Below are positions 10,261 through 29,407 of a stretch of DNA of 64,000 bases, one piece after another. A program made the position numbers and the translations under genes. Positions within the stretch are counted from its first letter, which is position 1. Every line of letters starts with the position of its first letter. The notes beneath the pieces are model-generated. The model did no database searches. It saw only the letters and a list, made by a program, of their open reading frames with translations, and had not been told where the DNA came from. Source of the DNA: Candidatus Binatia bacterium (GTDB taxonomy: Bacteria > Desulfobacterota > Binatia > UBA9968 > JAJDTQ01); the NCBI GenBank assembly GCA_963666515.2, contig OY762897.2:32001-96000 (forward strand), written 5' to 3'.

Positions 10261-10328
10261 GGGGCGACCGCGGGTCGCCCCTACACATGCCCCAGCGGAA
10301 CCCATGTAGGGGCGACCCGCGGTCGCCC
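10261..10328. repeat. GTAG-type REP doublet (REPIN/BIME-like)
   Basis: GGGCGACCGCGGGTCGCCCCTAC, a ~21-nt linker, then GTAGGGGCGACCCGCGGTCGCCC. The same unit occurs at 43809-43873. Confidence 0.85.
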
Positions 10329-11215
10329 TAGGCTTCCGCCTTGACGTTCAGTTCCATCACGCCGATCTTCTCGATCTCTCCCCTGAGCTTGTCGCCGTCC
10401 AGCAGCGTGTGCACCCCGGCCGGCGTCCCGGTGGTGATGAGGTCGCCGGGCCGGAGGGTCACCACGCTCGACAGGAAGCGAATGTGGTCGCGCACGCCAC
10501 AGATCATGTCGCTGGTGTGCGAGGTCATCACCTGCTCACCGTTGTGCCAGGCGCTGAGTTTGAGGTCCTGCGGTTCCGGGATCTCGTCCGCGGTGACGAT
10601 CCAGGGGCCGAGCGGGCTGAAGGTGTCGAAGCCCTTGCGGATGTTGCGGGTGTTCTGCTTGCCGCGGCCCCAGGGGTCGCGCTGGCTGATGTCCCAGCAG
10701 ATGGTGTAGCCGAACACGTAGTCCAGCGCCTGTTCTTCGGTCACTTTCCGGGCGGTCTTGCCGATGACCACGCACAGCTCGCACTCGAAGTCCACGTCGT
10801 GGGAGACCTTGGGGATGATCACCGTGCCGCCCGGCCCGATGATGGACGACACCGGCTTCAGGAAGTCCTGGGACATGTGGTCGTCCTTGTCCGGCAGCGC
10901 CTGGTGGCCGCCGCCCATGCGCGTCTCCATTTCCTTCCGGTGGTCCATGTAGTTCGCCGCCGCCGCCCACAGCGAGGTGGGGTTGTCGATGGGCGCCCGC
11001 AGGGTCACCTGGTCCAGCGGCACCGAGTCGCCCGACCGGATGCATTCATCGACACAGGGTTGGGCGTCCGGGTTGTCGGTCATCGCCTCGATGACCTGGA
11101 CCATGGTGTAGCCCTCCTTGAGAATCCCGGCCGCCACCATGGCCGCGCCCACCGGATAGACCTTGCCGTCCGCCACCACTCCCGCCTGCTTGTCGTCGTA
11201 AGTGCAGAATTTCAT
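10328..11215 (-). CDS. Fumarylacetoacetate hydrolase family protein
   Basis: NYMDH, FLKPVSSIIGPG, DFECEL, DISQRD, KGFDTFSPLGP and LRPGDLITTGTP motifs. Confidence 0.93.
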   Translation of the reverse strand: MKFCTYDDKQAGVVADGKVYPVGAAMVAAGILKEGYTMVQVIEAMTDNPDAQPCVDECIRSGDSVPLDQVTLRAPIDNPTSLWAAAANYMDHRKEMETRMGGGHQALPDKDDHMSQDFLKPVSSIIGPGGTVIIPKVSHDVDFECELCVVIGKTARKVTEEQALDYVFGYTICWDISQRDPWGRGKQNTRNIRKGFDTFSPLGPWIVTADEIPEPQDLKLSAWHNGEQVMTSHTSDMICGVRDHIRFLSSVVTLRPGDLITTGTPAGVHTLLDGDKLRGEIEKIGVMELNVKAEA

Positions 11216-11373
11216 ATGGTTGAAGTCCTCCGCGCTGGAATCGTTGCCTTATACCATAACGGGCGAGGGGTGGGACAGCGGAGTGACCGCGCGGCGCGCC
11301 GGGCTTGACACCCGCGCGGAAATGTTCGATCCCGATGGCGTCCCCAGGGGCTCATACCAGCGGGAGGTCCACC

Positions 11374-12189
11374 ATGAAGACGCGAATCCGGCACATTGCC
11401 CTCAACACGGAGAACTGGGACCGGATGGCCCGGTTCTACCAGACGATCTTCGGCATGAAGAAGATCACCACCGGCATGACCGACGAGAAGGGCAACTACA
11501 ACCCCAACCGGGGCCACATCAGCGACGGCGTCATCGGCTTCGCCATGCTGCAGAAGCATCCGGGGAACCAGTCCGGGCTGGACCACTTCGGCTTCGAGGT
11601 GGAGGAGATCCCGCTGGTGCTGGAGCGCATGCGCAACGACTATCCCGAGCTGCTGGTGGCCAAGAGCCTGCCCCACGTGCCGTTCTCCGTGTCCCGCGGC
11701 ACCGACCCCTGCGGCACCCAGTACGACATCTCGCAGAAGGGTGTGGCCAAGGTCCGCGAGGGCTACTTGGAGGACGGCTGGGACCAGCCGCGGCAGATCA
11801 GCCACATCTCCATCCGCTCCAAGCAGCCCGAACGGGTCGCGGAGTTCTACCACAAGGTGTTCGAGTTGGACGCCGGCGAGACACCCGGTCCCGACGGCAG
11901 CTTCCGCATCACCGACGGCAAGGTGGAACTGCTGGTGCGCCCGTGCGACAACTCGCTCTACCGCGGCATGCGCGAGGGGCTCGACCACATCGGCTTCATC
12001 GTGGAAGACCTGGAGCGCACGCGCAAGGAAATCGAGGAGTTGAGCGAGTCCGCCCCCGAGTCAGCGCCCGCCAACCTGGACGCCGGCCGCTTCGGCCCCA
12101 TGACCCGCGCCGACCTGGAAGGCTGCGTCATCGGAGAGTATGCGATGGCCGATCCGGACGGTGTGCTGCTGGATATGACAGAGGCGTAA
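11374..12189 (+). CDS. Two-domain VOC/glyoxalase-fold protein
   Basis: IRHIAL...FYQTIFG, LDHFGFEV, ISHISI...FYHKVF, LDHIGF and DPDG. GGAGG RBS before ATG 11374. Confidence 0.85.
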   Translation: MKTRIRHIALNTENWDRMARFYQTIFGMKKITTGMTDEKGNYNPNRGHISDGVIGFAMLQKHPGNQSGLDHFGFEVEEIPLVLERMRNDYPELLVAKSLPHVPFSVSRGTDPCGTQYDISQKGVAKVREGYLEDGWDQPRQISHISIRSKQPERVAEFYHKVFELDAGETPGPDGSFRITDGKVELLVRPCDNSLYRGMREGLDHIGFIVEDLERTRKEIEELSESAPESAPANLDAGRFGPMTRADLEGCVIGEYAMADPDGVLLDMTEA

Positions 12190-12319
12190 AGCGCTCTCCT
12201 ACGCCGCGTTGCTCAGGGAACTCGAACCGCAAACGGCGAAGCTGGAGGGAACCCACGGCCGTCGTCCTCTCCTCGGAGGCTCGACCGTGGCGGCGGTCCC
12301 GAAGATCACCGGGGCTGCA

Positions 12320-12602
12320 TTATGCGGGATCGAAACTGATCCTAAGCTTGGTGCCCGTAGCGCGGGCGATCCTCTCCAGGGTCTGGGTGGACGGATGGAT
12401 ACGGCCGCTCTCCAGGCGGACCACGACCGATTGCGTCGTCTCCATGCGTTCGGCCAACTCGGCCTGGGTCAGTGCAGCACGAGTGCGGGCCTCGATCAGC
12501 ATGTGCGACAACGCGAATTCCGGCTCAAGACGATCATAGGCTTCCCGGTACTCCGGGTCCTTGCTCCATTCCCGGTGCAACTCCGATACCTTAGTTAGTC
12601 AT
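12320..12602 (-). pseudogene. HigA-like Xre HTH antitoxin with a 4-bp duplication after the start codon
   Basis: HTH LTQAELAERMETTQSVVVRLESG. The 5' end reads ATG ACT AAC TAA GGT; removing one ACTA restores MTKVSELHREWSKDPEYREAY. Confidence 0.75.
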
Positions 12603-12923
12603 GACCATATCTCCCCGGCGCGCCTGAGCGCCAATGCGATTTCCCGTTTCGGTGTCCGTCGCATTTTCTTGAGGAACGCCCGAGCCACGATCACCCGTCT
12701 GTCCCCGGCGGGGACATAGAGCGCTCGCGACGTGCCTGCACGGCCGCTCATGCGCATTCCCAGAGCGGGCCGGTGAGGTGCCTGACATGGGGCGCGTCCA
12801 TGCGTTCAAGACCAACCGCGGGATCAACTGACAGATGCGCGCGAAGCGCGCCGGCATATCGTGCGGCAACGCCCGCAACTCCGCGTCCACGGTTTCGTTG
12901 GGGGTCTCGACGGTCCATTCCAT
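12599..12923 (-). pseudogene. RelE/HigB (Gp49-like) toxin, frameshifted twice
   Basis: Fragments in three frames: MEWTVE...ARFARICQLI / AVGLERMDAPHVRHLTGPLWE / MRMSGRAGTSRALY...AFLKKMRRTPKREIALALRR. The stop overlaps the antitoxin ATG. Confidence 0.75.
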
Positions 12924-12986
12924 ATTCCGTCACTGTATCGCGTGTTTGCTATGAAGGCGGCCGGAAGGCAACCGGTAGGGATGTCG

Positions 12987-13898
12987 TCAAGCGGCGGTCA
13001 AATGAGGATTGCTTCCGAGCTTGCCACGACTGCAGATAGCTTCGATTGTGTCGGTGCGCCAACACAAACCCAATGCCGCTTCGCTTTCCGATTGCATAGC
13101 ACGACCGCTGTAGCATCCAACGAACTGGGTGCCCTGGCTGCCCCAGATCGCAACGTCGTCTCTATTCCAGAATCCCGGTTCGTCGGGATCAACCTTGCGA
13201 TATGGATCTTTCATATCCCAAGCGCCGTAGTAGCGGGCAAACACCGGGGACCCTGACATGCCGGCTCGCGTTTGCGCGTCTAAGAAGAACGCCGGTATGC
13301 GTGTGCCGCCTGTCAATCCGCCGTACGCCTGCGGCTTTCCGGCAAGGTCGATGTCATAATATGGTTCCGAAGCGATATAGCCTGACTTCCACAACGGCAG
13401 GCCGAAGGCAACGCTAATGGCCTGTGGGAAGCCGATAATGAAGACCGTACATCCGGGCTCAAGCGGTACTTCGTCTTCGCTGATACGGTTTGCCGCGTTG
13501 TGCATGAACTCGGGACATGATTCAGGTCTTGCCATCGGGATCGCAATCACGTCACAAGAAGGGCCTAGGTCAGGATGTTCAAGCCACACCGGATGCTCTC
13601 CGTCATAGAGTCGGATGGGATGTGGCACGATTCCGAACTTTCTGCTGTCAGGATCACCAATCTTGTATGACGACAACTTGGCGGTTAGACTGATGGGTTC
13701 TCGGAATGGATGGATCAATGGTTCGCGGGTCAGGAAATGGCGGCCGCTGACGATGTGCCAATTCGTGATGAGAAACCAGTTTCCGGCCGTCTCGAAGAAA
13801 AAGGCGCTACCTGACGACAGCACCGCCTCATGCTGATCGTGTGTCAGCAATTGTAAGGGGCATTGCGAGTAGGTGCTCCTGATTCCGTACCTTGGCAT
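12987..13898 (-). CDS. Trypsin-like serine peptidase domain protein (cytoplasmic)
   Basis: Triad-like motifs LITNWHIV, CDVIAI and AGMSGSPV, plus IIGFP. No signal peptide; lower GC than the flanks. Confidence 0.75.
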   Translation of the reverse strand: MPRYGIRSTYSQCPLQLLTHDQHEAVLSSGSAFFFETAGNWFLITNWHIVSGRHFLTREPLIHPFREPISLTAKLSSYKIGDPDSRKFGIVPHPIRLYDGEHPVWLEHPDLGPSCDVIAIPMARPESCPEFMHNAANRISEDEVPLEPGCTVFIIGFPQAISVAFGLPLWKSGYIASEPYYDIDLAGKPQAYGGLTGGTRIPAFFLDAQTRAGMSGSPVFARYYGAWDMKDPYRKVDPDEPGFWNRDDVAIWGSQGTQFVGCYSGRAMQSESEAALGLCWRTDTIEAICSRGKLGSNPHLTAA

Positions 13899-14042
13899 AA
13901 CTTCGTCCGCCTTCGTTGGGTACGATCATGTCAGGTCCGACGGCAGGTTTCTGGAGTCAAGGCATCCGGATCCGACTGCGAGTCAACTCGGCGCTCGAAC
14001 AAGTCCAATATCCGAAGGTCCGAAATCGAGTCGAAGAACTGC

Positions 14043-14405
14043 TCAATCACGCACCCGAATTCTCGATTCCTCAACGATCCAGAGTTGGCCGTCGAGGGAG
14101 CCGGCGGAAAGTCGATGAAGAAATCGTGCTCCGATTTCCAGAAGATGGTCGCGTGCTTGATTGTCCAGTCGAAACACGACGATTCCCGGATATGCGCCGG
14201 GCCGATATGTTCGGATGTCCGAGAAGTCACCATCCAGCGTCACGATTGCGCGGCGCTCCTGAACGCAGACGGTCGCCAGATCCGGATCGCTTACGCCGCC
14301 CAGTTGCTGATCGAGAACGGTCACCGCATCGTGACCCGCCCTATTGAACAAGTCCGCCATTTCTGCGGGGAGGTTTTCGTCCAGCTTGAATCGCACCAGG
14401 GCCAT
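14043..14405 (-). CDS. DUF5615 (VapC45-like) PIN-domain toxin
   Basis: FKLDENLP...GHDAVTV...D...IVTLDGDF pattern; lies directly downstream of a DUF433 gene. Confidence 0.85.
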   Translation of the reverse strand: MALVRFKLDENLPAEMADLFNRAGHDAVTVLDQQLGGVSDPDLATVCVQERRAIVTLDGDFSDIRTYRPGAYPGIVVFRLDNQARDHLLEIGARFLHRLSAGSLDGQLWIVEESRIRVRD

Positions 14406-14408
14406 TCC

Positions 14409-14636
14409 CTACTCGGATAGTGCTACCGTCCGCTCCTTGGCCAACTCCGCGGCGTAGCACACCGCTGCCTGCACGGACTCCCTTGTGATGGAAGGATAGC
14501 TCTTGGTGATTTCCTCTGAATCCAAGCCCGCTGCCAGATTGTTGAGGATGGTGGTGACCAAAACCCGCGTGCCCGTAATGCAGGCCCTGCCGTGGCAGAC
14601 TTCGGGATCGACGGTGATGTGCTCTCGCCAGTTCAT
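14409..14636 (-). CDS. DUF433 antitoxin
   Basis: ITVDPEVCHGRACITGTRV...YPSITRESVQAAVCYA. Confidence 0.9.
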   Translation of the reverse strand: MNWREHITVDPEVCHGRACITGTRVLVTTILNNLAAGLDSEEITKSYPSITRESVQAAVCYAAELAKERTVALSE

Positions 14637-14774
14637 TTGGCCGGTCCCCCTTTCATATCCTTGGTACGCCAAAACGTCCTCAGTTCCAACAAGGCAATGT
14701 TGGCTAAGTCAAGAGGACCACTTGGGGATCCAGGGACTGCGGCAGCGGATCGCGCCGTGGACCGTCGCCGCCTC

Positions 14775-16286
14775 TTACGCCGCGCTGCTCAGGAACTCCG
14801 CCAGCCGTTCGCCGATCACGTACACGGTGGAGTTGGTGTTGGCGCGCACCACCTCGGGCATGACCGAGGCGTCCGCCACCCACAGGTTGTCCAATCCGTG
14901 GACCCGCAGCCGCTGGTCTACGACCGCGGCCGGGTCGTCGACCGGTCCCATCTTGCAGGTGCCGCTGGCGTGTTGATAGCTGTCGTAGGTCGAGCGCGCC
15001 CAGGTCGCCCAGTCCTCGTCCGGCGCCGGGTTGCGCAGCTCGCCGTAGAACTCCCGCATCGGTGGCGTCCGGGTCAGGTCGCGGATGAACTCCATGGCGG
15101 CGACCATCTTCTCCACGTCCGCGGGGTGCTCCAGCAGCCCGGTTTCAACGGCCGGGAAATCCTTCGGGTCGGCGCTGTTGAGGCGTATTCGCCCGGGCGC
15201 CTCCTGCTCCAGCAGTTGCGCGGACAAGGGGAGCAGGGAGCCGACGTCCTGGATCTTCGTGGGCGGGCGCAGGGTGACGCTGAAGTCGCCGTGGTCCAGG
15301 CCGGCGGCGCTCCGGGCCATGAGCCGGAGCCTCGGCAGGGTCCAGTCCACCTCGAATTCCCTGGCGGCCGCGAAGGTCATGTGGATGGAGGCGTGGTCCT
15401 GGAAGTTCCTCCCCACGCCGTCCAGCGCATGAGTGACCTCGATGCCGAGGGCCTCCAGTTCCGCGGCCGGGCCGACACCCGACAGCATGAGGATCTGCGG
15501 GCTCCGGTACGCGCCCGCCGCCAGCACCACTTGGCCCGCGGTGTCGGTGTGGACCCTTCCGTCCTTCTCGTAGCGCACCCCGTCCACGCGGCTGCCGGAC
15601 AGGGTCAGGCCCAGCACCGGCGCTTCCGCCTTGATGGTGAGGTTCGGACGCGCGCGCGCCGGGTCGAGATGGCTCACCACCGCGGACTGGCGCACGTCGT
15701 CCTTGATGTTGCAGACCCCGGGGCCCACGCCCACGGGATCGGGGAGGTTGGTGTCGGGCAGGCGCGGGATGCCCATCTCCGCGGCGCCGTCGATATAGGC
15801 CCGGACCACCGGGGCGAGGTCGGAGTCCAGGCCGAAGGGGCGCTTGACGTACACCGGCCCGGCGTGGCCGTGGTCGGGGTCGTCCGGGAAGTCCTGGTCC
15901 GCCTCGATCCGTTTCAGCACGCCGTGGACCGTTTCCCAGGACCAGTCGGGATTGCCCGCCGCCACCCACCGGTCCATGTCGTGGCGGAGCGGCCACACCC
16001 AGCCCATGGCGTTGACGGACGAGCCCCCGCCCATGATCTTTCCGGCCATGGGGTAGAACCGGCTGCCGTCGATGGGCCGCTCGACGGTCAACGTGTCGAT
16101 GTAGGGACTCTCGAACCAGAGCCGGTCCCGGCCGCTGGCCAGCCGGACGGTGTCGGGCGCCGGCCGGGGATCCGTCGCGGCCTCCAGCAGCAGCACCTTG
16201 CGGCGCGGATCCTCGCTCAGCCGCGCCGCGGCCACACAGCCCCCGGAGCCGCCGCCGATGATGATGACGTCGTAGTGATCGGACAT
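14775..16286 (-). CDS. GMC (choline dehydrogenase-like) oxidoreductase, copy A
   Basis: GGGSGG FAD motif, GGGSSVNAM, VGRNFQDH, HASGTCKMG and LWVADASVMP...NTN. Confidence 0.93.
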   Translation of the reverse strand: MSDHYDVIIIGGGSGGCVAAARLSEDPRRKVLLLEAATDPRPAPDTVRLASGRDRLWFESPYIDTLTVERPIDGSRFYPMAGKIMGGGSSVNAMGWVWPLRHDMDRWVAAGNPDWSWETVHGVLKRIEADQDFPDDPDHGHAGPVYVKRPFGLDSDLAPVVRAYIDGAAEMGIPRLPDTNLPDPVGVGPGVCNIKDDVRQSAVVSHLDPARARPNLTIKAEAPVLGLTLSGSRVDGVRYEKDGRVHTDTAGQVVLAAGAYRSPQILMLSGVGPAAELEALGIEVTHALDGVGRNFQDHASIHMTFAAAREFEVDWTLPRLRLMARSAAGLDHGDFSVTLRPPTKIQDVGSLLPLSAQLLEQEAPGRIRLNSADPKDFPAVETGLLEHPADVEKMVAAMEFIRDLTRTPPMREFYGELRNPAPDEDWATWARSTYDSYQHASGTCKMGPVDDPAAVVDQRLRVHGLDNLWVADASVMPEVVRANTNSTVYVIGERLAEFLSSAA

Positions 16287-16299
16287 GGGTTCCTCCTTC

Positions 16300-17811
16300 T
16301 CACGCCGCGCTGCCCAGGAACTCCGCCAGCCGTTCGGCGATGACGTAGACCGTGGCGTTGGTGTTGGCGTGGGTTACCTCGGGCATGATCGAGGCGTCGG
16401 CCACCCACAGGTTGTCGAGGCCGTGGACGCGCAGTCGCTGGTCCACCACCGCGCCGGGGTCGTCCGCCGGCCCCATTTTGCAGGTGCCGGAGGCGTGGTG
16501 GTAGCTGTCGTAGGTGGAGCGGGCGAAGGTCGCCCAGTCCTCGTGGGGTGCCGGGTTGCGCACCGCTCCGTAGAACTCACGCATCGGCGAGGTTCGGGCC
16601 AAGTCCCGGAGGAACTCCATGGCCGCCACCATCTTCTCCACGTCCTTCGGGTCTTCCAGCAGGCCTGTCTCCACGACGGGAAAATCTCTGGCATCCAGGC
16701 TGGGGAGGCGGATCCGTCCCGGCGCTCCTTGCTCCAGCAGTTGCACGGACAAGGGCAGCAGGGTGCCTACGCCCTCGATCCTGGTGGGAGGCCGTAGCGA
16801 AGCGCTGAAGTCGCCGTGATCGATGCTGGGGGAAGTCTGCGCCAGGAGGCGAAGCCTCGACAGGGTCCACGCCACCTCGAAGTCCCTGGCGGCCGCGAAG
16901 GTCACGTGGACGACGGCGTGGTCCTGGAAGTTCCCTCCGACGCCCTCCAGCCCGTGGGTCACCTCGATGCCCATCCGTTCCAGCTCCGCGGCCGGGCCGA
17001 TGCCCGACAGCATGAGGACCTGGGGGGTGCGGTACGCTCCCGCGGCCAGAACCACTTGGCCGGCGGTGTCCGTGTGGATGCGGCCGTCCTTCTCGTAACG
17101 CACGCCGTCCACGCGCCTGCCCGACAGGGTCAGCCCCAGCACCGGCGCCTCGGCCTTGATGGTGAGGTTCGGCCGTCCCCGTGCCGGTTCGAGATGGCTC
17201 ACCGCCGCGGACTGACGTACGCCGTCCTTGATGTTGGAGACCCCCGGTCCCACGCCCACGGGGTCGGGGACGTTGGTGTCGGGGAGGCGTGGCAGGCCCA
17301 TTTCGACGGCGCCGTCGATACAGGCCCGCACCACCGGGGACAGGTCCGAATCCAGGCTGAAGGGACGCTTCACGTAGACCGGTCCGGCGTGGCCGTGGCC
17401 CGGATCGTCCGGGAAGTCCTGGTCCGCTTCGATGCGCTTCAGGACCCCGTGGACCGTTTCCCAGGACCAGTCGGGATTCCCCGCAGCCACCCAGCGGTCC
17501 ATGTCATGCCGGGTCGGCCACACCCAGGCCATGGCGTTGACCGACGAGCCCCCGCCCATGATCTTTCCCGCCAGGGAGCGGAACGGGCTGCCGTCGACGG
17601 GCCGCACGACCGGGACCATGTCGACGTAGGGGGTCTCCAGCCAGACCCGGTCACGGGCGCTGGCCAGCCGGATGGTTTCCGGGATCGGTTGCGGGTCCGG
17701 CGCCGCTTCCAGCAGCAGCACCTTGCGGCGCGGGTCTTCGCTGAGCCGCGCGGCCGCGACGCAGCCGCCCGAGCCGCCGCCGATGACGATGACGTCGTAG
17801 CGATCGGACAT
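16300..17811 (-). CDS. GMC oxidoreductase, copy B
   Basis: Same motifs as copy A. Start at MSDRYDV with an AAGGAG RBS gives the same 503-aa length. Confidence 0.93.
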   Translation of the reverse strand: MSDRYDVIVIGGGSGGCVAAARLSEDPRRKVLLLEAAPDPQPIPETIRLASARDRVWLETPYVDMVPVVRPVDGSPFRSLAGKIMGGGSSVNAMAWVWPTRHDMDRWVAAGNPDWSWETVHGVLKRIEADQDFPDDPGHGHAGPVYVKRPFSLDSDLSPVVRACIDGAVEMGLPRLPDTNVPDPVGVGPGVSNIKDGVRQSAAVSHLEPARGRPNLTIKAEAPVLGLTLSGRRVDGVRYEKDGRIHTDTAGQVVLAAGAYRTPQVLMLSGIGPAAELERMGIEVTHGLEGVGGNFQDHAVVHVTFAAARDFEVAWTLSRLRLLAQTSPSIDHGDFSASLRPPTRIEGVGTLLPLSVQLLEQGAPGRIRLPSLDARDFPVVETGLLEDPKDVEKMVAAMEFLRDLARTSPMREFYGAVRNPAPHEDWATFARSTYDSYHHASGTCKMGPADDPGAVVDQRLRVHGLDNLWVADASIMPEVTHANTNATVYVIAERLAEFLGSAA

Positions 17812-20637: not shown

Positions 20638-21450
20638 ATGGCACTGAAAGCCTCCATGGGCGCCACTTACGGCTGGCGCGCGCGCATCGGTTTCGTAACT
20701 CCAAGTCCCGGCCACGAGAACAACGGCTACGAGTTCTATCTCATGGCCCCCGACGGCGTCACCATCGTGATGACGTCGCTGCACGTTACCCAGTTGACCC
20801 AGCAGCAGTATGACGACGCGGTGAGCCGCATGGACGCGGCGGTGAAGGAGCTGGAGGACCGGCGGGTGGATTCTATCATCCAGGCCGGGGTGCCGCTGGT
20901 GGTGACCCGGGGGTGGGGATTCGAGGAGAAACTCCTGGCCGAGGTGGCGCGTCAGACCGCCATACCGTTTGCCACGGACATCGGCTCCTGCATCCGCGCC
21001 ATGCACACCCTGAGCATGGCCCGCGTGGTGATGCTCACGCCCTTCGACGACGTCATGCACCGGCTGCTCGCCGAGTACGTGGGCCACGCCGGCATCGAGG
21101 TGGTGGCCACCCGCTCCCTGTGGCCCTCCGACGAGGCCGCCATGTCACGCCGCTACGGCGTGTCCACCATGCCCCTGGCGGAGATATACCGCGCCGCCAA
21201 GGACCTCTTTCTCTCGACGCCCGGCGCCGACGGCATCTGGATCACCGGCGCCCTCATGCCCAGCGTCGCCGTCATCGACAGCCTGGAGCAGGACCTCGAC
21301 GTCCCCGTGGTGACCAGCATGCAGGCCATGATGTGGGCCGGCCTGGGTCTGGCGCACGTGGACTCGGAGGTGGAAGGATACGGCCACCTGTTCGACTACG
21401 TGTACGGCGCCGAACCGGTTAACGATGACGGATATGACCCGGAAGCGTGA
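20638..21450 (+). CDS. Asp/Glu racemase / maleate isomerase / AMDase superfamily protein
   Basis: GWRARIGFVTPS, LTPF and LEQDLDVPVVTSMQA family motifs. Confidence 0.8.
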   Translation: MALKASMGATYGWRARIGFVTPSPGHENNGYEFYLMAPDGVTIVMTSLHVTQLTQQQYDDAVSRMDAAVKELEDRRVDSIIQAGVPLVVTRGWGFEEKLLAEVARQTAIPFATDIGSCIRAMHTLSMARVVMLTPFDDVMHRLLAEYVGHAGIEVVATRSLWPSDEAAMSRRYGVSTMPLAEIYRAAKDLFLSTPGADGIWITGALMPSVAVIDSLEQDLDVPVVTSMQAMMWAGLGLAHVDSEVEGYGHLFDYVYGAEPVNDDGYDPEA

Positions 21451-21537
21451 AGTGCTTGGTTTGGTTCCAGTAACTCGCGGGACGTAAACCGGCAATGCGC
21501 GAGGTTCGTCAAAGGACGGGCTTTCTTGGAGACTCTG

Positions 21538-24500
21538 ATGCCGTTTTCTCCCGGCCAGATCGTATGCTTGGCGTCCAACCCATCTGTTACGGGAGCCGTC
21601 GTCGACATCGTGGCAGGATCGTCCGAAGACTCCGTCAGGGTTTTTGTCAACGGCGATATTCGGACGTATTTCGCCTCTCAATTACAGGTTGCTGATCCAG
21701 CGGACCACGCAACGCCTCTGTCTGCAAGGCACTTTCAGGCCCGCCTGACCGCCCTGCAAATACGCCATCCCAACCTCTCGACGCTGTATTCGCTCAATGC
21801 CGCCCGTGTCGATTTCATCCCCTATCAGTTCCGTCCGGTGCTGAGATTCATCCGTTCCGACCGTCCGCGCTTGCTGATAGCCGATGGCGTGGGGGTGGGC
21901 AAAACCATCGAGGCCGGGCTGATTCTCAGGGAGTTGCAGGCTCGGCGGGAGGTCAAGTCCGTTCTCATCGTGTGTCCCCGTCCGCTCGTGACCGAGCGTA
22001 AATGGGAACTGGAGATGAAACGCTTTGACGAAAGGTTTACCCATTTGGACGGTGCAACATTGCGATACTGCATCAACGAAATGCACCTTGAGGGCGAATG
22101 GCCCGACCAGCATCGGAAAACGATCCTTCCGTATTCGCTGTTCGACGAGGCGCTTCTGTACGGTCCCGGCGGCAAAAAAAGCCGGAAACGACAACGCGGC
22201 AATGGTCTTTTGGATCTGGATCCGCCCCCGCGCTTCGACCTCGTCATCGTGGACGAAGCCCACCACATCCGCAATCCGGACACCCATAGGCACGCGGCGG
22301 TACGGTTTTTCTGTGAACATGCCGAAGCAGCGGTCTTTCTTACTGCCACCCCTGTTCAGCTCGACAGCCACGACCTTTTCGTGTTGTTGAACGTGTTGCG
22401 TCCCGATCTCGTACTGGATCAGGCCAGCTTCGAGCACATGGCGGAGCCGAACCCGTTCATCAACCAGGCCGTGCACCATGCCCGTACGCAAGGGCAAGGT
22501 TGGACGGGGCGCGCGACGGCCGCCCTTGAACAGGCAGCCGCCACCGCCTGGGGCCAAGCGATACTCAGGGACAATCCCGAATTCGGGCGGATCAGGGACA
22601 GGCTTGCCAAGGGGAGCGTCGCTGCCGACGAGAGGGTTCAATTCATCACCGACATGGAAGCCTTGCATACGTTTTCGGGCATTATCAACCGTACGCGTCG
22701 GCGCGATATCGGCGCGTTCACCATTCGGAAGCCGGAAACGTTCAAGGTTGCATTCACGCCCGACCAACAACGGCTTCATGACGAGTTGCTCCGTGTTCAG
22801 GCCGAGATATTCAGCCGGTTGCATCCAAGCGCCAACGTCAAGTTCATGATGACCACGATTCGACGGCAGGCTGCGAGTTGCCTTTATGGACTTGCTCCCT
22901 TCCTCACGGATATCCTGAATCGTCATCTCGATGAACTGGAATGGGAGGAGGTCGACGATACGGGTACGGTTCCGTGGAGCGATGTCAACGGCCCAATCCG
23001 CGCGCAGATCGAAACCATTCTGGAGCACGCCCGCAACCTTGACCCCGAAGACCCGAAACTTGAGACGTTGCGTAAAATCATCCGGGATAAGCAGGCCCTG
23101 CCTAACAACAGGATCATGCTGTTCAGCAGCTTTCGGCACACGCTTGCCTATCTGAACGGACGTCTCAGAGAGGATGGTATCCGCGCTGGAATGATTCACG
23201 GTGGTACGCCGGACGACGAACGTGTGGTACTGCGCAACCGCTTCGAGAAGCCACGTGAAGACCGTGACGCCCTTGATGTCCTGCTGTTCTCGGAGGTTGG
23301 TTGTGAAGGTTTGGACTACCAGTTCTGCGACTGCATCGTGAACTACGACCTGCCATGGAATCCCATGCGAATCGAGCAGCGCATCGGCCGTATCGACCGT
23401 AAGGGTCAGCGGAGCGAAAGCGTTGCCATCGTCAACCTGATTATCCCCGGAACGGTCGATGCGGACATTTACGAGCGCTGCCTTGTCCGCATCGGCGTGT
23501 TCGAGAATGCCTTGGGGGGCAGCGAGGCGATACTTGGCGACATCTCCACCGAAATCAAGAATATCGCCGAAAACTATTCCCTTAGTGAGGTAGACCGCCG
23601 GGAGAAACTGCAACAGTTGGCGGACAACAAGATTCGGTTGGTACAGGAACAGGAAAGGCTCGAGGAGCAGCAGTCGGAGCTCTTCGGTATTCGTCTGCCG
23701 GAAGATCAGATGAAGCAGGAGATCGAGGACGCATCGAGTTTCTGGCTGTCTCCGTCGTCGCTCCGCAAGCTGGTCACGGTGTATCTGCAAGATACCTGCG
23801 GGACGGCGCAGGAGTTCATCCTTGGCGAGAAATCCCTTAAAACATTGCGCCTTTCCCAAGATGCCCGGAATCACATGCTGCGTGACTTTCAGCAGCTCTC
23901 TGGACGGAGGAATACACCTGCCTATCGCGCCTGGGAAACTTGGTTAAAGGGAAGTGACCCACACTTGTCCATCACCTTCGATGCGGATTGCGCGAGCCAG
24001 AATCCACGAGTCACCTTCATCATGCCGCTGCACCCGCTCGTCATCCAGGCCGCCGGATCGCTTGTCGCAAAGCGGGTGGTCAGGACTACATTGAAGGCCA
24101 AGACTGACCGAATGCCTGCAGGGCGCTACGAGTTCGCCGTCTACCAATGGCAGTTCCACGGTATCCGGGAAGATCTGGTGCTCAAGCCGATTGCTGCATC
24201 GCGGGTTCTGACACCAGACCTTGGTCGTTTGCTTGAGAATGCGGTGGATGTCGAGCCGGACAGATGCGACAGTGTGGCTACCGAGTGGGACGAGTTGGAT
24301 GGACGGCACCACGACCTCTGGTCCGAGGCCCGTAGACAGCATCAACAACGGACTCGGGAACTCGCAGCGTACCGAAGGGAGAGCTTGGCCACCAGCCATC
24401 ACGCGCGCTTGGCGCTTCTAAGAGATCAACACCGAACCGCCGGCGACGACAATATCCGACGAATGCGTCAGTCGCAGATCGATTCTGCCGAGGCGGACTA

Positions 24501-24597
24501 CAATCGACGTTGCCGGGAGTTGGATTCGGCCATCGAGAGAGCGGATGTTGTCGCCGAGCCCGTGGCGTATGGGATACTGTATATTGAGCTATATTGA
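21538..24597 (+). CDS. SNF2/RapA-DrmD-like superfamily 2 helicase/translocase
   Basis: LIADGVGVGKTIEAG (I), DEAHH (II), LTATP (III), EVGCEGLDYQ (V) and YDLPWNPMRIEQRIGRIDRKGQ (VI). GGAG RBS before ATG 21538. Confidence 0.92.
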   Translation: MPFSPGQIVCLASNPSVTGAVVDIVAGSSEDSVRVFVNGDIRTYFASQLQVADPADHATPLSARHFQARLTALQIRHPNLSTLYSLNAARVDFIPYQFRPVLRFIRSDRPRLLIADGVGVGKTIEAGLILRELQARREVKSVLIVCPRPLVTERKWELEMKRFDERFTHLDGATLRYCINEMHLEGEWPDQHRKTILPYSLFDEALLYGPGGKKSRKRQRGNGLLDLDPPPRFDLVIVDEAHHIRNPDTHRHAAVRFFCEHAEAAVFLTATPVQLDSHDLFVLLNVLRPDLVLDQASFEHMAEPNPFINQAVHHARTQGQGWTGRATAALEQAAATAWGQAILRDNPEFGRIRDRLAKGSVAADERVQFITDMEALHTFSGIINRTRRRDIGAFTIRKPETFKVAFTPDQQRLHDELLRVQAEIFSRLHPSANVKFMMTTIRRQAASCLYGLAPFLTDILNRHLDELEWEEVDDTGTVPWSDVNGPIRAQIETILEHARNLDPEDPKLETLRKIIRDKQALPNNRIMLFSSFRHTLAYLNGRLREDGIRAGMIHGGTPDDERVVLRNRFEKPREDRDALDVLLFSEVGCEGLDYQFCDCIVNYDLPWNPMRIEQRIGRIDRKGQRSESVAIVNLIIPGTVDADIYERCLVRIGVFENALGGSEAILGDISTEIKNIAENYSLSEVDRREKLQQLADNKIRLVQEQERLEEQQSELFGIRLPEDQMKQEIEDASSFWLSPSSLRKLVTVYLQDTCGTAQEFILGEKSLKTLRLSQDARNHMLRDFQQLSGRRNTPAYRAWETWLKGSDPHLSITFDADCASQNPRVTFIMPLHPLVIQAAGSLVAKRVVRTTLKAKTDRMPAGRYEFAVYQWQFHGIREDLVLKPIAASRVLTPDLGRLLENAVDVEPDRCDSVATEWDELDGRHHDLWSEARRQHQQRTRELAAYRRESLATSHHARLALLRDQHRTAGDDNIRRMRQSQIDSAEADYNRRCRELDSAIERADVVAEPVAYGILYIELY

Positions 24598-24615
24598 GCG
24601 GGTCGAGAGGACACA

Positions 24616-27600
24616 ATGAATCTCGAAGAATTACGACAGAGACGCCTGAAATGGGTGGAAGCGAATCGCGAAAACGACTTTGAAGACGGTATCAGAGCCC
24701 TTCTCACGGACCTCTATCCGGACAATGCACATTTTATTTACGAGCTTCTTCAGAATGCTGAGGATGCCCAGGCAACGGCAGTTCGCTTCGTCCTCAAGCA
24801 GGACGGCGTTGAATTTGAGCACGACGGGAAGCTGTTTTCGATCCAGGACGTAAAGGACATTACAAGTATCGGAAATAGCGCAAAGAAAGACGATCCGACC
24901 AGCATCGGCAAGTTCGGGATCGGTTTCAAGGCCGTGTTTGCCTATACGACGACGCCGGAAATCGCATCTGGTCAATTTCATTTTCGCCTCCGTGACCTGG
25001 TGGTGCCAGAAACAGAGGGATTGGCGCCGCATCCACCTGATGGAGAAAAGACCCTGTTCGTCTTTCCTTTTAATAACCCTGCAAAGTCGCCCGAAAAGGC
25101 CCGTGATGAGATTGAGAGAAACCTCCGGCAGTTGGACGAATACGCCCTCCTTTTTCTGAAGAGTATCAAGAAAATAGAGTACCAGTTGCCCGATTCGTCC
25201 CAGGGGTCTCTGAGGCGGAAGGAACCAAAAGGTGACCGGATTGAAATTTTCATCGAGCACCCTGAAGAAGCAGGGTCGAGTTCACGTTCATTTCTCCGGT
25301 TCGACGGGTCCGTTGAAGTCGATGATGAGGACGGCGAACCCAAGGTGTGCCGCATTGCCGTTGCTTTCGGCTTGGAACGGAGCCAGGACCCGGAAGCGAA
25401 ACGGTCCGGCGGCAAGAGAAAACCACGGGTAGGCCGTTGGAAGATAGCGCCGTTGGAGCCGGGGAAGGTTTGCATCTATTTCCCTGCGGAAAAGGAAACA
25501 TCCAATCTTCGGTTTGCGTTGCACGCGCCTTTTGCCTCGACCGTTGCGCGCGACAGCGTGCGCGATTGCGCAGCGAACGATGCCTTGCGGGATCACTTGA
25601 CGGATCTCATCGCGGAGTCAATGACCAACCTGCGCGATCAGGATTTGTTGACGGTGAGCTTTCTTGCGACGTTACCCAACGACAAGGACAATTTGCCTCC
25701 ATTCTACAAGCCGATCTTGGAAAAGCTGGTCGAGGTGTTCCAGAGCCAGAAGCTTACACCGATGAAGGATGGCAGTCACGAGGTCGCAAATGGGGTATTT
25801 AGAGGTTCCAGGCAGCTATCCGACCTCATAGGTGATGAGGATTTGGCGACAATCCTCGGACAGGACGATTATTGCCCGCCGATGTGGATCGCCAATCCCC
25901 CTCAACAACACCAGCGTGAAGACAACTTTCTTTCCCTGCTGAGCGGCATCTCTGAATGGACGAGGGAAGATCTCGTCCAGCGGCTGTCCACTCGACCGGA
26001 ACAGGTCGCCAAATGGCTGACGAACAAGTCGGCTCATTGGCACCGAAAACTCTACGCGTTCCTGGGTGACTTCTTGACAAGCGCGCCAAATCGTCGGGAG
26101 GAAGCAGATCGTAAACGCAAGCTGGAACAGCTCCCCGTGGTTCTCTGCAGCGATGGCGCGCACAGGGTCGGGCAGGAATGTTACTTCCCTGGCGACGAAG
26201 ACGAGGGCGACGACGGGTTCCCACGTGTGGCCAGACACACCTATTCTTCTGGCGACAATCCGCAAGAGCAGAGGAAGGCCCGTGAGTTTCTTGACGTTGT
26301 TGGGGTTGGTGAAGTCGACGAGGCTGAAAGGGTGAAGGCGATTCTGAAGGAGCGATATTCGGAGGGCTCAATCGAACCTCGCCAACAGGATATGGAGAGA
26401 TTCATCAGGCTCGTCGAAGGATACGAGCGGTGTGCGGACATGTTCCGGGAACATTGTATCTTTCAATTGGAAACAGGAGATTGGGGGAAGCCAAGCACGG
26501 TCTTTCTTGACTCACCCTATCGAGACACCGGCCTGACGGCTTACTATGAGATACTCGGTGAAGCTCAGGGAAGGAGACGGGCGCTCTCCACGAAGTATGA
26601 CGCGTTTGGCATAGAGCCAACACGGTTGGGGGAGTTTGCTGAGGCGGTAGGCGCTCAGACAGAGCTACGACCCAGCAAACAAAGGATTCCCCCTAGCCAT
26701 CCTGAAAGGCGCAGGCTAAGTGACGGAGGGGGATGGTCAGAGAAGTACGGAATAGATAAGGACTACGATATCCCGGAGTTTGACGTGCTGTTGGGGCAGC
26801 CCAGCTTGGACAGGTCGAGGTTAATCTGGCAAACGATGACAGAACTGCCTGGTGCGTGTCTGAAAGCGGAGTATCGGTCCAATAGCTGGCATGCCTCGAA
26901 GGTTGCCGAGTCCACGCTTGTCCACAAGCTCAGAAGGCGCGAGTGGGTTCCGCAAACACAGGACGGCGGAGAGAGCATCCGTTTCGTGACGCCTGCTGAA
27001 GCCGTTTCTGACGGTCTCCTTAAGGGCTTTGCATTCGACCCGGGAGTGGAATGGCTGGAAGCAATCGAGTTTGGAAAGTCTCGACGAGATCGAGAGAAGG
27101 GTGAACGTCAGAGAAAAGAACAGTCTGCCCAAGACTTTCAGCGACAAAGCGAGGCATCTGAGGTGTTGGGGTTTCGGAGCGTTGAAGACGCGCTAGAGTT
27201 GGCACAGATGTTGCGTCAAGATCCTGGGATAGTGGAGCGATTGAAGAAAGACAAGCAGAAACCGCCATTTCCTGAAAGGGTGGCCCGTAACGCCGGTCGT
27301 GCGCGGGCACGGCTCATTGAAGATGTCGCTAGCCGTCCCGAGAAGGAATACGGTACGCGACCCAGAAGCGTGCGGGTCACAAGGAACGAGATCGATCCCG
27401 ATACCTGGTTGAGGAACCAGTACACGAACGAGGATGGACAGATGGTCTGCCAGATTTGCAAAGACGCAATGCCGTTCATGAAACGGGACGGCGAGCACTA
27501 CTTCGAGGCGGTGGAAGCCTTGTCCAGAGATTATTTTCCCAAGGAGCACGAAGAACAATTTCTGGCCCTGTGCCCACTTTGTGCCGCGATGTACAAGGAA

Positions 27601-27855
27601 TTCGTCAAGCGCGACGAAGATGTCATGAAACGTCTGTATGAGTGGTTGAAGGATTCAGATGAGCCTGAACTGCCACTGACGTTGGGACAATGGAGTGCGA
27701 GTCTCCGGTTCGTGGAAACTCACCGGCAGCGCCTGAAGGCGATCTTGGCCGTCGTGGACCACGGTGACGCGTGGACCGTGCAAGATGAAAACGATCTGAC
27801 CACTGCCTCCTTGCGGTACGCGGAAGGGCGCTACCCGGAGGAGGACGTTGTTTAA
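24616..27855 (+). CDS. Sacsin/NOV-like GHKL ATPase with a C-terminal Zn-binding HNH-like domain
   Basis: IYELLQNAEDA, EHDG and SIGNSAK...IGKFGIGFKAVF, plus LHAPF...RD transducer-like segment. The C-terminus reads CQIC...YFEAVE...LALCPLC. Confidence 0.85.
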   Translation: MNLEELRQRRLKWVEANRENDFEDGIRALLTDLYPDNAHFIYELLQNAEDAQATAVRFVLKQDGVEFEHDGKLFSIQDVKDITSIGNSAKKDDPTSIGKFGIGFKAVFAYTTTPEIASGQFHFRLRDLVVPETEGLAPHPPDGEKTLFVFPFNNPAKSPEKARDEIERNLRQLDEYALLFLKSIKKIEYQLPDSSQGSLRRKEPKGDRIEIFIEHPEEAGSSSRSFLRFDGSVEVDDEDGEPKVCRIAVAFGLERSQDPEAKRSGGKRKPRVGRWKIAPLEPGKVCIYFPAEKETSNLRFALHAPFASTVARDSVRDCAANDALRDHLTDLIAESMTNLRDQDLLTVSFLATLPNDKDNLPPFYKPILEKLVEVFQSQKLTPMKDGSHEVANGVFRGSRQLSDLIGDEDLATILGQDDYCPPMWIANPPQQHQREDNFLSLLSGISEWTREDLVQRLSTRPEQVAKWLTNKSAHWHRKLYAFLGDFLTSAPNRREEADRKRKLEQLPVVLCSDGAHRVGQECYFPGDEDEGDDGFPRVARHTYSSGDNPQEQRKAREFLDVVGVGEVDEAERVKAILKERYSEGSIEPRQQDMERFIRLVEGYERCADMFREHCIFQLETGDWGKPSTVFLDSPYRDTGLTAYYEILGEAQGRRRALSTKYDAFGIEPTRLGEFAEAVGAQTELRPSKQRIPPSHPERRRLSDGGGWSEKYGIDKDYDIPEFDVLLGQPSLDRSRLIWQTMTELPGACLKAEYRSNSWHASKVAESTLVHKLRRREWVPQTQDGGESIRFVTPAEAVSDGLLKGFAFDPGVEWLEAIEFGKSRRDREKGERQRKEQSAQDFQRQSEASEVLGFRSVEDALELAQMLRQDPGIVERLKKDKQKPPFPERVARNAGRARARLIEDVASRPEKEYGTRPRSVRVTRNEIDPDTWLRNQYTNEDGQMVCQICKDAMPFMKRDGEHYFEAVEALSRDYFPKEHEEQFLALCPLCAAMYKEFVKRDEDVMKRLYEWLKDSDEPELPLTLGQWSASLRFVETHRQRLKAILAVVDHGDAWTVQDENDLTTASLRYAEGRYPEEDVV

Positions 27856-28189
27856 GCCGAGCGATGTGGTAGTGCTCGACTTCCCTGGGGTGAGGGGTGT
27901 CAAACGCCGACCGGCAGTGGTCGTCTCCTCATCTGTTTACCATGCCTCCCGACCTGACGTGGTGGTCGGCCTGATAACGAGTCGCACCACCAGACTTGGC
28001 GCCATGGACTATGTCCTGCAGGATTGGGCACAGGCCGGCTTGAGGCTCCCTTCCGTTTTTAGGTGTTTTTTCGCCACGTTGCCCGGCACCCGGGCTAGCG
28101 TTGTCGGCGAACTGTCGGGCCGCGATTGGCGGGGCGTACGCGGGCGCGTAAGAGTCGCTCTGGCGCCATTGGCCACTCGGAAGCATTAG
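27848..28189 (+). CDS. PemK/MazF-family endoribonuclease toxin
   Basis: DVVVLDFP...KRRPAVVVSS...GLITS...AGLRLPS. TTG start with GGAGG RBS, overlapping the upstream stop by 8 nt. Confidence 0.85.
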   Translation: MFKPSDVVVLDFPGVRGVKRRPAVVVSSSVYHASRPDVVVGLITSRTTRLGAMDYVLQDWAQAGLRLPSVFRCFFATLPGTRASVVGELSGRDWRGVRGRVRVALAPLATRKH

Positions 28190-28267
28190 GGATGTCGCGT
28201 CCGTCAGGACATCGTACGCGGATGTGAGGACGGTGCGTAGTGGGGAAACTGCTGTTGCGGCGGGGAG

Positions 28268-29284
28268 TTACGCGAGCCGCGGCGCCACCTTCTCGGTGAG
28301 CAGACGGATGGAGTTGAGGACCTGTTCGTGGGGGATCTGGCCGCCGTGGTTCATGTCCAGGATCAGGCCGGTGAGTCCCGTGCGCTCGCGGAATTCCTCC
28401 AGGCGGTCGACCACCGACTCGGGCGAGCCGAAGATGACGCGGGTGTTCAGGAACTCGTCGTAATCGTTCATGAACCTCTGGGCCTGGGCGACGCGGTCGG
28501 CGGCGTTCATGGCCGTGGCTTCGGCGATGACCCGGTGCAGGTCGTGGACCACGCTGGCTCTCGGGGTCTCGCGCGCCAGCTCTTCCGACTCGGCGACGAA
28601 GACGGGCACGCGCACATGGATCTCGGGCGGGTCGGCGTGGCCGGCGGCCTGCCATTCGTCGCGGTAGATCTGCAAGCGGTCCTCGTAGTAGTCGCCCATG
28701 AACCACAACACCACGTTGAAACCGCGCCGGGCGGTGGCGGCGAAGCCTTCGGGGGTGCGGACGGCCATGTAGATGGGGGGATGGGGCTTCTGCAGCGGCC
28801 GGGGTGAAATGCTGACGTCGTGGTACGAGTAGTAGTCGCCCTCGAAGGAGAACGTGTCCTGGGTGAAGGCGCGCATGACGATCTCGAACGACTCGGTGAA
28901 ACGCGCGGTGCTTTCCGAGTAGGGGATGTTGAAGCCGTCGTAGAACTTGGGGATGCTGCTGCGGCCGACGCCGAAGTCGAACCGTCCGTGGCTCATGTGG
29001 TCGATGGAGGCCACCTCTTCGGCGATGCGCAGGGGGTTGCCCAAGGGCAGCACCTGCACCGCGGTGCCGATGCGCACGCGCTGCGTGCGCGACGCGATTG
29101 CGCCGGCCACAGCCATGGACGCCGACAGCACCGAGGCCTGGGGCCGGAAGTGGTGCTCGACGATCCAGATGGAGTCCAGGCCCATGGATTCGGCGGCATC
29201 CACCTGCGCGAACAGCTCGTCGAAGGCGAGCGTCTGTGTCTGATCCTTCCGAACGTGACAGTCAACCAGCAAGCCGAACTTCAT
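28268..29284 (-). CDS. LLM-class (luciferase-like) flavin-dependent oxidoreductase
   Basis: MKFGL, WIVEHHF, NPLRIAEE, GRFDFGVGR and PRPLQKPHPPI. Confidence 0.92.
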   Translation of the reverse strand: MKFGLLVDCHVRKDQTQTLAFDELFAQVDAAESMGLDSIWIVEHHFRPQASVLSASMAVAGAIASRTQRVRIGTAVQVLPLGNPLRIAEEVASIDHMSHGRFDFGVGRSSIPKFYDGFNIPYSESTARFTESFEIVMRAFTQDTFSFEGDYYSYHDVSISPRPLQKPHPPIYMAVRTPEGFAATARRGFNVVLWFMGDYYEDRLQIYRDEWQAAGHADPPEIHVRVPVFVAESEELARETPRASVVHDLHRVIAEATAMNAADRVAQAQRFMNDYDEFLNTRVIFGSPESVVDRLEEFRERTGLTGLILDMNHGGQIPHEQVLNSIRLLTEKVAPRLA

Positions 29285-29407
29285 TCGAATGATTCCTGTC
29301 GTGTTACCCGGAGCCCCCGGTCTCCGGGTAAGCGAATCCGCCCGAGCGCAGGGCAGTGACACTGCGCCCTGCCTCGTTCCGGAGCGCGGTTTTTCCGAAC
29401 TCCGCCC

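Follow-up and report, generated by a model that had tools for sequence, protein, structure and literature searches.

A defence-type helicase and ATPase gene pair with a putative fused antitoxin tail beside mazF in a Candidatus Binatia bacterium

A stretch of 64,000 nucleotides from a Candidatus Binatia bacterium (assembly GCA_963666515.2, contig OY762897.2, positions 32,001 to 96,000; referred to as a whole as the window, with all coordinates given as window positions) contains a low-GC (guanine plus cytosine) island with three genes, all on the plus strand. Gene A encodes a DrmD-like SNF2 helicase, gene B a sacsin/Tiamat-like GHKL ATPase and gene C a toxin of the MazF/PemK family. Sequence comparison and a predicted complex allow it to be stated with fair confidence that the C-terminal tail of B is a fused antitoxin peptide. 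This is the new point of the analysis: the antitoxin would be fused to the C-terminus of B and not be absent. The explanation considered best, with chances that are put at about even, takes the island as a defence-type cassette in which B itself would be the antitoxin that holds the MazF dimer.

About 35 extra C-terminal residues are found on a subset of B homologues including the one in the window, while the rest end at the last helix; among close homologues, 21 of 122 carry this tail. Invariant within it are W1053, D1057, D1060, S1065, Y1068, Y1073, P1074 and E1075. Relatives of the MazF were gathered from metagenomes, and in 41 of the resulting 55 loci a tblastn search with B gave a match confined to B residues 1030-1079 (38-62% identity), with the body of B or the SNF2 gene in none of the 55. 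In these metagenomes, the open reading frame (ORF) whose end lies a few bases past the mazF start codes in most cases for a small protein of 79-91 amino acids that stands alone, and the C-terminal motif of this protein is that of the B tail (...D.W[ST]EQD..DLT..SL.YA...YPE.E.). Because these stand-alone upstream ORFs share the motif, the tail of B appears to be the toxin-binding end of the MazF clade's own antitoxin. More distant MazFs (30-41% identity) were paired with other antitoxins, one of which is a Pfam MazE_antitoxin protein.

Structure prediction supports binding of the tail to the MazF dimer. Two MazF chains and B residues 1020-1079 were modelled together with custom alignments, and the predicted complex obtained an interface score (ipSAE) of 0.83 as compared to 0.01 for the best of three controls; 116 of 157 solved complexes and 2 of 215 mismatched pairs attain the mark for this score, a calibration from which the present prediction differs by its custom alignments and its three chains. 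The runs shared at least 61% of contacts, the predicted local distance difference test (pLDDT) value of the partner was at least 61, and the predicted interface involves B residues 1047-1078 and both MazF protomers.

The fused tail and an overlapping mazF occur together in four genomes, which are that of the window and the genomes G443 (locus L003), G453 (L168) and G456 (L169). In the phylum of the other fusion genomes, all three MazFs with at least 73% identity were joined to a tailed B, and two at about 50% were not. Three more tailed B proteins lie on contigs with sizes exactly equal to those of close MazFs (7253, 3280995 and 5709 nt), and the tail-less B protein P0021 likewise shares an exact contig size with a MazF (12002 nt), which is a proxy only in each case. 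As a separate observation, the SNF2 gene of L003, a locus from an Entotheonella genome, is found in two frames (L003:3746-7004, residues 2-891 and 887-1021), due to a frameshift or an assembly error.

Tailed B proteins belong to at least three separate lineages. In trees based on the first 1000 B residues and leaving out the tail, the tailed proteins fell into five groups, and at least five changes were needed on a FastTree tree of 122 sequences as well as on an IQ-TREE tree of 50 sequences; well-supported branches force at least three changes. A single tailed clade was rejected by the approximately unbiased test (p 1e-13, log-likelihood difference 328), with 29 non-tail rows of the IQ-TREE set hand-picked from 101 and the group defined by the trait after the first tree had been seen. 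Since the tailed B proteins do not form one clade, the fusion seems to have been repeatedly gained or lost, and on these trees of unknown root gains are indistinguishable from losses. Junction lengths vary between the tailed groups, which is compatible with more than one fusion event.

Judged from its sequence, the MazF of the island looks intact. Its closest solved relative is MazF6 of M. tuberculosis (5hk0, E 2.5e-4), with which the KRRP and ITS motifs align, and both motifs (including T44) are invariant in 30 relatives. These positions are presumably the catalytic ones, as in the MazF proteins of E. coli and B. subtilis. The gene is present as a single copy in the window's genome, and at E<=1e-15 a MazF was detected in only 1 of 401 genomes of the phylum, which is the window's own genome. 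No match to gene C was obtained with PADLOC. There is an 18-nt gap between A and B and an 8-nt overlap between B and C, which agrees with the tight packing of three co-oriented genes described in the initial annotation, and it can be assumed with fair confidence that mazF is co-translated with B via the overlap. All coordinates are collected in Table 1.

Table 1. Features of the island and of its flanks, in window positions
Feature	Position	Strand	Basis
Low-GC inserted island, ~6.8 kb	21449..28268	.	GC drop and congeners without the island
Gene A, DrmD-like SNF2 helicase	21538..24597	+	Pfam SNF2-rel_dom, Helicase_C, ResIII
Gene B, sacsin/Tiamat-like GHKL ATPase, 1079 aa	24616..27855	+	Pfam SACS (residues 25-120) and HATPase_c_3
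B residues 25-120, Bergerat-fold ATP-binding core	24688..24975	+	ELLQNAEDA N-box, GKFGIGFK glycine box
B residues 905-1050, HNH-like Cys4 zinc module (CQIC ... CPLC)	27328..27765	+	Profile, model, Foldseek
B residues 1044-1079, putative fused antitoxin tail (VVDHGDAWTVQDENDLTTASLRYAEGRYPEEDVV)	27745..27852	+	Homology to stand-alone antitoxins; predicted MazF binding
Gene C, MazF/PemK-family endoribonuclease toxin, 113 aa, TTG start	27848..28189	+	Pfam PemK_toxin 32.6 bits (cut-off 23.1)
Left flank, host: arylmalonate decarboxylase / Asp-Glu racemase-like gene	20638..21450	+	Pfam Amdase E 5.2e-28
Right flank, host: luciferase-like monooxygenase	28268..29362	-	Pfam Bac_luciferase E 6.7e-64

Genes A and B belong together far beyond this genome. 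In a survey with one genome per species that yielded 534 relatives of B, the best 79 of 534 loci were kept, and a homologue of A (residues ~7-1020, tblastn) was located directly upstream of B on the same strand in 72 of them, so that the check for conserved adjacency of both large proteins, suggested in the initial annotation, came out positive. Five of the seven loci without an upstream A have less than 130 nt of upstream sequence, and only L066 and L073 have room for the gene. The two matches are separated by no more than 90 nt in 64 loci, and the hosts include Latescibacterota, Poribacteria, Entotheonella, Desulfobacterota, Actinomycetota, Bacillota, Campylobacterota, Planctomycetota and others. 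A conserved third gene downstream of the pair was not seen in the 79 loci. It is concluded with fair confidence that A and B form a mobile, defence-type two-gene module. In 27 of 63 loci with an assessable 5' end, the N-terminus of the helicase carries a Swt1-like HEPN domain (Pfam PF18731, 69 bits) with the motif RNRWAH, and the HEPN profile was built from 25 of these 27; no match to the HEPN_Swt1 profile was obtained anywhere in the window, where A has no N-terminal HEPN domain.

The neighbourhood was also inspected for defence genes, as had been proposed for the recognition of a defence island. Among 131 ORFs within 4 kb of the pair, PADLOC matches at E<=1e-10 were found in 14 of 22 related loci and none in the other 8, a raw count without matched background from a database that spans broad families such as methyltransferases and kinases. 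The matches comprised BrxL and PglZ (BREX), type IIG and type III restriction-modification systems, GmrSD-like and DISARM-like proteins and several candidate systems.

The low-GC block is a real insertion. GC content is 0.53-0.58 across ~21500-28000 and 0.65-0.71 in the flanks, where Pfam assigned metabolic genes on both sides, with GMC oxidoreductases, MmgE/PrpD and an amidohydrolase farther to the left and additionally a BNR-repeat protein on the right; a lower-GC block between unrelated metabolic genes had already been described in the initial annotation. The left flank was searched in 28 genomes of the genus, and 12 kb of the window was aligned to the 12 loci thus obtained, including that of the window's own genome. 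Homology of the left flank with the congeners (84-91% DNA identity) extends up to ~21448 and resumes on the right at 28269. The bounds of the island are placed at ~21449-28268 because the flanking genes are only 31-137 nt apart in six congeners (L092, L093, L094, L096, L097 and L100). ORFs and Pfam revealed no methylase, restriction or integrase gene among the island genes, again as initially annotated; no boundary repeats were seen at the island edges, and no tRNA was found near the island, the sole tRNA of the window being at 49694. Within the genus, relatives of B are patchy and were detected in 9 of 24 other genomes, all of them divergent (best 56% identity) and at other loci. That the island is a horizontally acquired cassette of defence type forms part of the best explanation and shares its balanced chances.

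Other cargo occupies the interval between the flanking genes in five congeners (L090, L091, L095, L098 and L099). Two of these five hold an HTH-like (helix-turn-helix) ORF of 155 aa together with an ORF of 201 aa, which is Fic-like by eye only, two hold an ORF of 259-271 aa, and one a low-GC ORF of at least 418 aa. Because five congeners hold different cargo there, the interval may be regarded as a variable spot or hotspot.

For gene A, two starts are possible, ATG at 21538 (1019 aa) and TTG at 21526 (1023 aa), of which the ATG is likelier with a GGAG 6 nt before it. The GVGKT and DEAH motifs are present in the translation. Its best PADLOC match is the DrmD model PDLC02623 (E 2e-111, residues 5-891), followed by weaker matches to BrxH, HmaA (E 1.4e-39) and DpdE, and with the NCBIfam equivalog DISARM_DrmD (NF038317) it obtained 303 bits, under the cut-off of 610. 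The C-terminal third is conserved, and its alignment contains no nuclease-like motif.

In gene B, the ATPase head is well recognised, with 76 bits for Pfam SACS and 93 bits for NCBIfam P_loop_sacsin (cut-off 50), and its N-box and glycine box are invariant in the alignment of homologues. Thus, the Pfam domains agree with the initial assignment of a SNF2 helicase, a sacsin-like GHKL ATPase and a MazF. With the PADLOC TmtA model PDLC03972, B aligned at E 8.8e-58 over residues 3-588 only, and no DUF3684 was matched by Pfam in B at E<=0.01, though the TmtA alignment reaches residue 588. Among 8000 scored candidates, 3422 homologues of B were obtained at E<=1e-3; they are mostly ~1030-1090 aa long, align end to end, and none has an informative source name.

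At the other end of B, a profile from 54 sequences matched the HNH domain of EcoKMcrA (6ghc, E 7.5e-6). The AlphaFold model of this module had a pLDDT of 89.9, and Foldseek returned 6ghc again as top match (E 1.3e-3, probability 1.00), with weaker matches to Cas9, Cap5, Cascade-HNH, TagI, ScoMcrA and PacI. An HNH-like end had been noticed in the initial annotation and was recovered here by both approaches. B shares with EcoKMcrA the beta-beta-alpha-metal fold of HNH nucleases and the CxxC...CPxC zinc site, the ligands of which are invariant in the family; the two differ in that the catalytic histidines of McrA are replaced, since the columns aligned to the McrA HH and CPNCH histidines hold A/V/E and A and are unconserved in the B family, and a catalytic His ... 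Asn ... His arrangement was not found in B. Because of this replacement, the end of B probably serves to bind DNA and not to cleave it, that is, it would be a catalytically dead, zinc-binding HNH-like remnant as far as alignment and model indicate. At E<=1e-3, the profile of this module alone matched 2264 clusters (formed at 50% identity); at E<=1e-30 the number was 515.

An end without catalytic residues might also be a sign of decay, in which case the cassette would be a non-working fragment of a named system such as DISARM class 1, Hma or a full Tiamat with nuclease. The matches of A to the DrmD, BrxH, HmaA and DpdE models would fit, as would the fact that B covers only the first 582 of the 1302 positions of the TmtA profile. 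Such a history is nevertheless highly unlikely, as the 72 loci share this arrangement of two genes with full-length proteins, the ATPase motifs are intact, and the island contains no DrmA, DrmB, DrmC or methylase gene; the only match to DUF1998 in the window's genome is ~375 kb away, and 8 of 14 control genomes have a match to this family as well.

Equally little can be said for a housekeeping pair acting in transcription or DNA repair, with a RapA-like SNF2 protein, a chaperone-like GHKL protein and MazF as an unrelated neighbour. RapA is indeed the second-best NCBIfam match of A (166 bits, far under its cut-off of 576), it was the only PDB sequence matched by a profile of the C-terminal third of A, at a non-significant E of 0.04, and eukaryotic sacsin is described as a chaperone in the accessible part of PMC3710099. 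This is opposed by the location of the pair in a foreign low-GC insertion that is missing from six congeners, by its patchy distribution in the genus with divergent copies throughout, by the frequency of defence genes as neighbours, by the HEPN RNase domain on 27 of 63 assessable partners, and by defence proteins being the best profile matches of the pair, all of which makes a housekeeping role very improbable.

The captured-MazEF explanation starts from four computed results: A and B are co-conserved, the block is an insertion, the tail is homologous to stand-alone antitoxins, and an interface of tail and MazF is predicted. The core module would consist of a DrmD-like SNF2 translocase and a Tiamat-like GHKL ATPase, the nuclease end of which would have been replaced by a dead HNH-like module. 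In the lineage of the window, this module may have captured a MazEF-type pair, whereby the N-terminal body of the antitoxin would have been lost, its toxin-neutralising C-terminal peptide would have been joined in frame to the helix with which the ATPase ends, and mazF would have become translationally coupled to B through the 8-nt overlap. Because the antitoxin peptide is putatively fused to B, the 120-kDa ATPase itself would be the antitoxin, carrying the MazF dimer on its tail. The helicase and the ATPase might sense or act on foreign DNA through the dead HNH module, and MazF would be freed if, in infection, B were remodelled, inhibited or degraded or its production ceased, which would lead to RNA cleavage and growth stop (abortive infection).

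The initial annotation had proposed a sensor pair coupled to an abortive-infection RNase, and a similar coupling would be at work in such a mechanism. A role of MazF as a wired abortive-infection effector is a tentative proposal with clearly less than even chances. It is plausible because type II Gabija and ietHAS have been validated experimentally (PMC13069673, as far as its accessible text goes). Going further, B could be a chimera of sensor and antitoxin in which an ATP-driven GHKL clamp and a SNF2 translocase on foreign DNA directly control the release of a MazF dimer docked on the tail, the toxin-antitoxin pair would be the executioner arm, and the SNF2/Tiamat-like chassis would take interchangeable RNase arms (HEPN_Swt1, MazF tether, YafQ, PIN, AbiJ/Abi_2); this reading is considered rather less likely than not.

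The same structural finding is shared by a different reading, in which the toxin is a selfish addiction device. A MazEF-type module could have landed after B and a deletion could have fused the peptide to it; the fusion would then play no part in signalling and would only keep B, and the island with it, from being lost without a release of MazF. Alternatively, MazF could respond generically to transcription shut-off, whatever A and B do. This is a realistic possibility, although its chances fall clearly short of even. It agrees with the presence of unfused toxin modules in or beside the operon (DUF2281+YafQ in L029, PIN in L010, UPF0175+DUF3368 in L068, PemK in L076 and ParE in L021), with a toxin frequency that is independent of HEPN on the helicase, with the stand-alone antitoxin-like ORF (a remnant) that follows B without any mazF in L002, and with the consideration that the tail must stay conserved anyway once mazF is present. 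Against this reading stands the spread of the fusion over at least three B lineages differing by up to ~45% in sequence, since a neutral accident would be expected to persist or recur less. In addition, with the DNA-binding body of the antitoxin lost, mazF expression would be wholly under the A-B operon, and the wiring of a MazF-like effector to a helicase has precedents from experiment (accessible text of PMC13069673).

Several results weigh against the captured-MazEF explanation and its wired effector. Among the 79 loci, MazF is found beside the pair in only one, L003, with 75% identity, and in two further genomes outside these loci, so that the three-gene system of the initial annotation was not borne out; a pair with MazF at 1 of 79 loci works without it in most lineages, and MazF is a lineage-specific add-on and not a core member of the A+B module. 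The MazFs nearest to that of the island mostly belong to ordinary toxin-antitoxin pairs in which the antitoxin stands alone, and the fusion could be an insertion accident that was kept only because loss of the tail would be lethal. The complex prediction, in addition to its unusual number of chains, may pass by likeness because MazE-MazF complexes have already been solved. The whole-protein model of B had to be set aside with a pLDDT of 63.5 and the ATPase domain below 50, and a Foldseek search of this low-confidence model against the PDB returned only helical-repeat noise, with no match at E<=0.001. Promoter and terminator scans of the island were at chance level. The defence neighbourhood rests on the uncontrolled count given above, only the Tiamat of B. 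cereus was assayed in the closest published work, and Type IV of the classification given there is without phage tests in the accessible preprint text (10.64898/2026.09.30.754977). Finally, when same-strand ORFs within 900 nt of the pair were scanned with Pfam, an RNase or toxin gene was found in 4 of 36 HEPN-less and 2 of 27 HEPN-bearing loci, with 150 of 166 ORFs scanned in the former, where the 16 shortest were dropped, and 121 ORFs in the latter.

If the captured-MazEF explanation is true, the tail is a compact natural example of how toxin-antitoxin systems are wired into immune sensors by fusing the neutralising peptide alone. It offers a testable handle on a widespread two-gene module with thousands of members across phyla, and it joins three lines of research, those on Tiamat/sacsin GHKL ATPases, on DrmD-like helicases and on abortive infection by toxin-antitoxin systems. 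Even if it were no more than an addiction device, the tail would still illustrate a defence island making itself hard to lose.

Compared to known toxin-antitoxin systems, the island resembles MazEF/PemIK in the PemK/MazF fold and motifs of C, in the putative antitoxin peptide immediately upstream that overlaps the toxin start, and in the prediction of this peptide across the MazF dimer. It differs in having no separate antitoxin gene and no DNA-binding or dimerisation domain of an antitoxin, since the putative neutralising peptide forms the C-terminal end of an ATPase of 1079 aa. In PrrC-EcoprrI, a latent RNase is held by a defence complex. The same has been described for PARIS with AriA and AriB (summarised in the available text of 10.64898/2026.09.30.754977). 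The logic proposed here would be alike, with an ATPase or DNA-targeting complex that sequesters an RNase and frees it on infection; there is no sequence relationship to either system, and the tether proposed for the island is a covalently fused antitoxin peptide. Among helicase-associated systems, type II Gabija combines the helicase GajB with the MazF-like GajC, and ietHAS combines a DrmD-like SNF2 helicase with a toxin-antitoxin pair (PMC13069673, accessible part). The likeness to the island lies in a MazF-like effector with a helicase in the former and in a DrmD-like helicase joined to a toxin-antitoxin system in the latter, whereas the other partners differ, both lack a GHKL ATPase and a fused antitoxin tail according to this text, and GajC has a split MazF-like fold.

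As to the core pair, A resembles the helicase of DISARM class 1 with near full-length similarity to the PADLOC DrmD model; it remains under the DrmD equivalog cut-off, and its partner is a GHKL ATPase in an island devoid of the other Drm genes. For Hma, A matches HmaA, whereas B gave no HmaC match at E<=0.01 and a methylase gene is missing from the island. With Tiamat, B has the sacsin/Hsp90-like ATPase head and TmtA homology through residue 588 in common. However, Tiamat consists of one gene, the product of which has an active PD-(D/E)xK nuclease, whereas B lacks this nuclease and ends in the HNH-like Cys4 module.

The closest description is a bioRxiv preprint of October 2026 on Tiamat-like proteins (10.64898/2026.09.30.754977), in the accessible text of which Type IV-A has an inactive HNH-like end and Type IV-B a helicase neighbour, with Swi/Snf among the kinds listed. 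An HNH-like fold without catalytic residues and a helicase neighbour, by which Type IV is defined in this text, are both found here, and the A+B family is probably this Type IV, as compared by text definition and not by member lists; the HEPN domain on the helicase in 27 of 63 relatives makes the family fit the class better. In the initial annotation, the genes were taken for an unnamed system. This stands insofar as PADLOC-DB v2 recognises only DrmD and TmtA components, and it does not stand insofar as the pair has probably been described in outline already in the preprint, going by its available text. MazF and DrmD each have 0 occurrences in the accessible preprint text. No literature link of MazF with GHKL, Tiamat or SNF2 proteins was found in a search that had subscription journals and preprint supplements outside its reach, and the terms GHKL, sacsin, Hsp90, MORC, Tiamat and HATPase have 0 occurrences in a paper on BREX diversity (PMC12839542).

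An "effector swap", in which MazF would have replaced a lost HEPN domain, was considered and rejected, since the toxin frequency is alike with and without HEPN and this lack of difference leaves the idea unsupported. Most HEPN-less pairs had no visible effector in the scan. The HEPN-less loci with a toxin were L003 with MazF and an AbiJ_NTD4 protein (7021-7899), L010 with PIN (6539-7959), L021 with ParE and L076 with PemK just upstream of A (4401-4757). The HEPN-bearing ones were L029, where DUF2281 and YafQ lie between A and B (7480-7946), and L078 with Abi_2 just downstream (11319-12245).

HEPN domains on the helicase are exemplified by L001:1397-1924, L005, L013, L031 and L048. The combination of a HEPN-SNF2 protein with a sacsin-like GHKL partner mirrors the GHKL-plus-HEPN make-up of eukaryotic sacsin, and a Swt1-like HEPN domain fused to a SWI2/SNF2 ATPase was noted already in 2013 (PMC3710099, accessible part).

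Some loci of the survey showed further peculiarities. In L007, two tandem B-like genes follow one HEPN-SNF2 gene (3963-11138, 12461-16708), after which come genes for a cytosine methylase and for a DrmA/DrmD-like helicase, and in L048 the entire pair is duplicated in tandem (L048:4337-18993). A match to the PADLOC candidate PDC-M23A (1.4e-98) is located directly upstream of the SNF2 gene in L004:3365-4207 and also in L045 and L009, all from Latescibacterota. In the same phylum, a gene for a MazG-like nucleotide pyrophosphohydrolase overlaps or abuts the end of B (L014:11135-11521 and L045:12727-13113). Three Poribacteria-type loci have an N-terminal extension of ~180-220 aa on B (L011:7335-8000, L012:7365-8000 and L040:3898-4440), which has weak similarity to Hfq/LSM below the Pfam cut-offs and may be an RNA-binding add-on, and an ORF with an Hfq domain (34.7 bits) lies upstream in L012:3393-3935.

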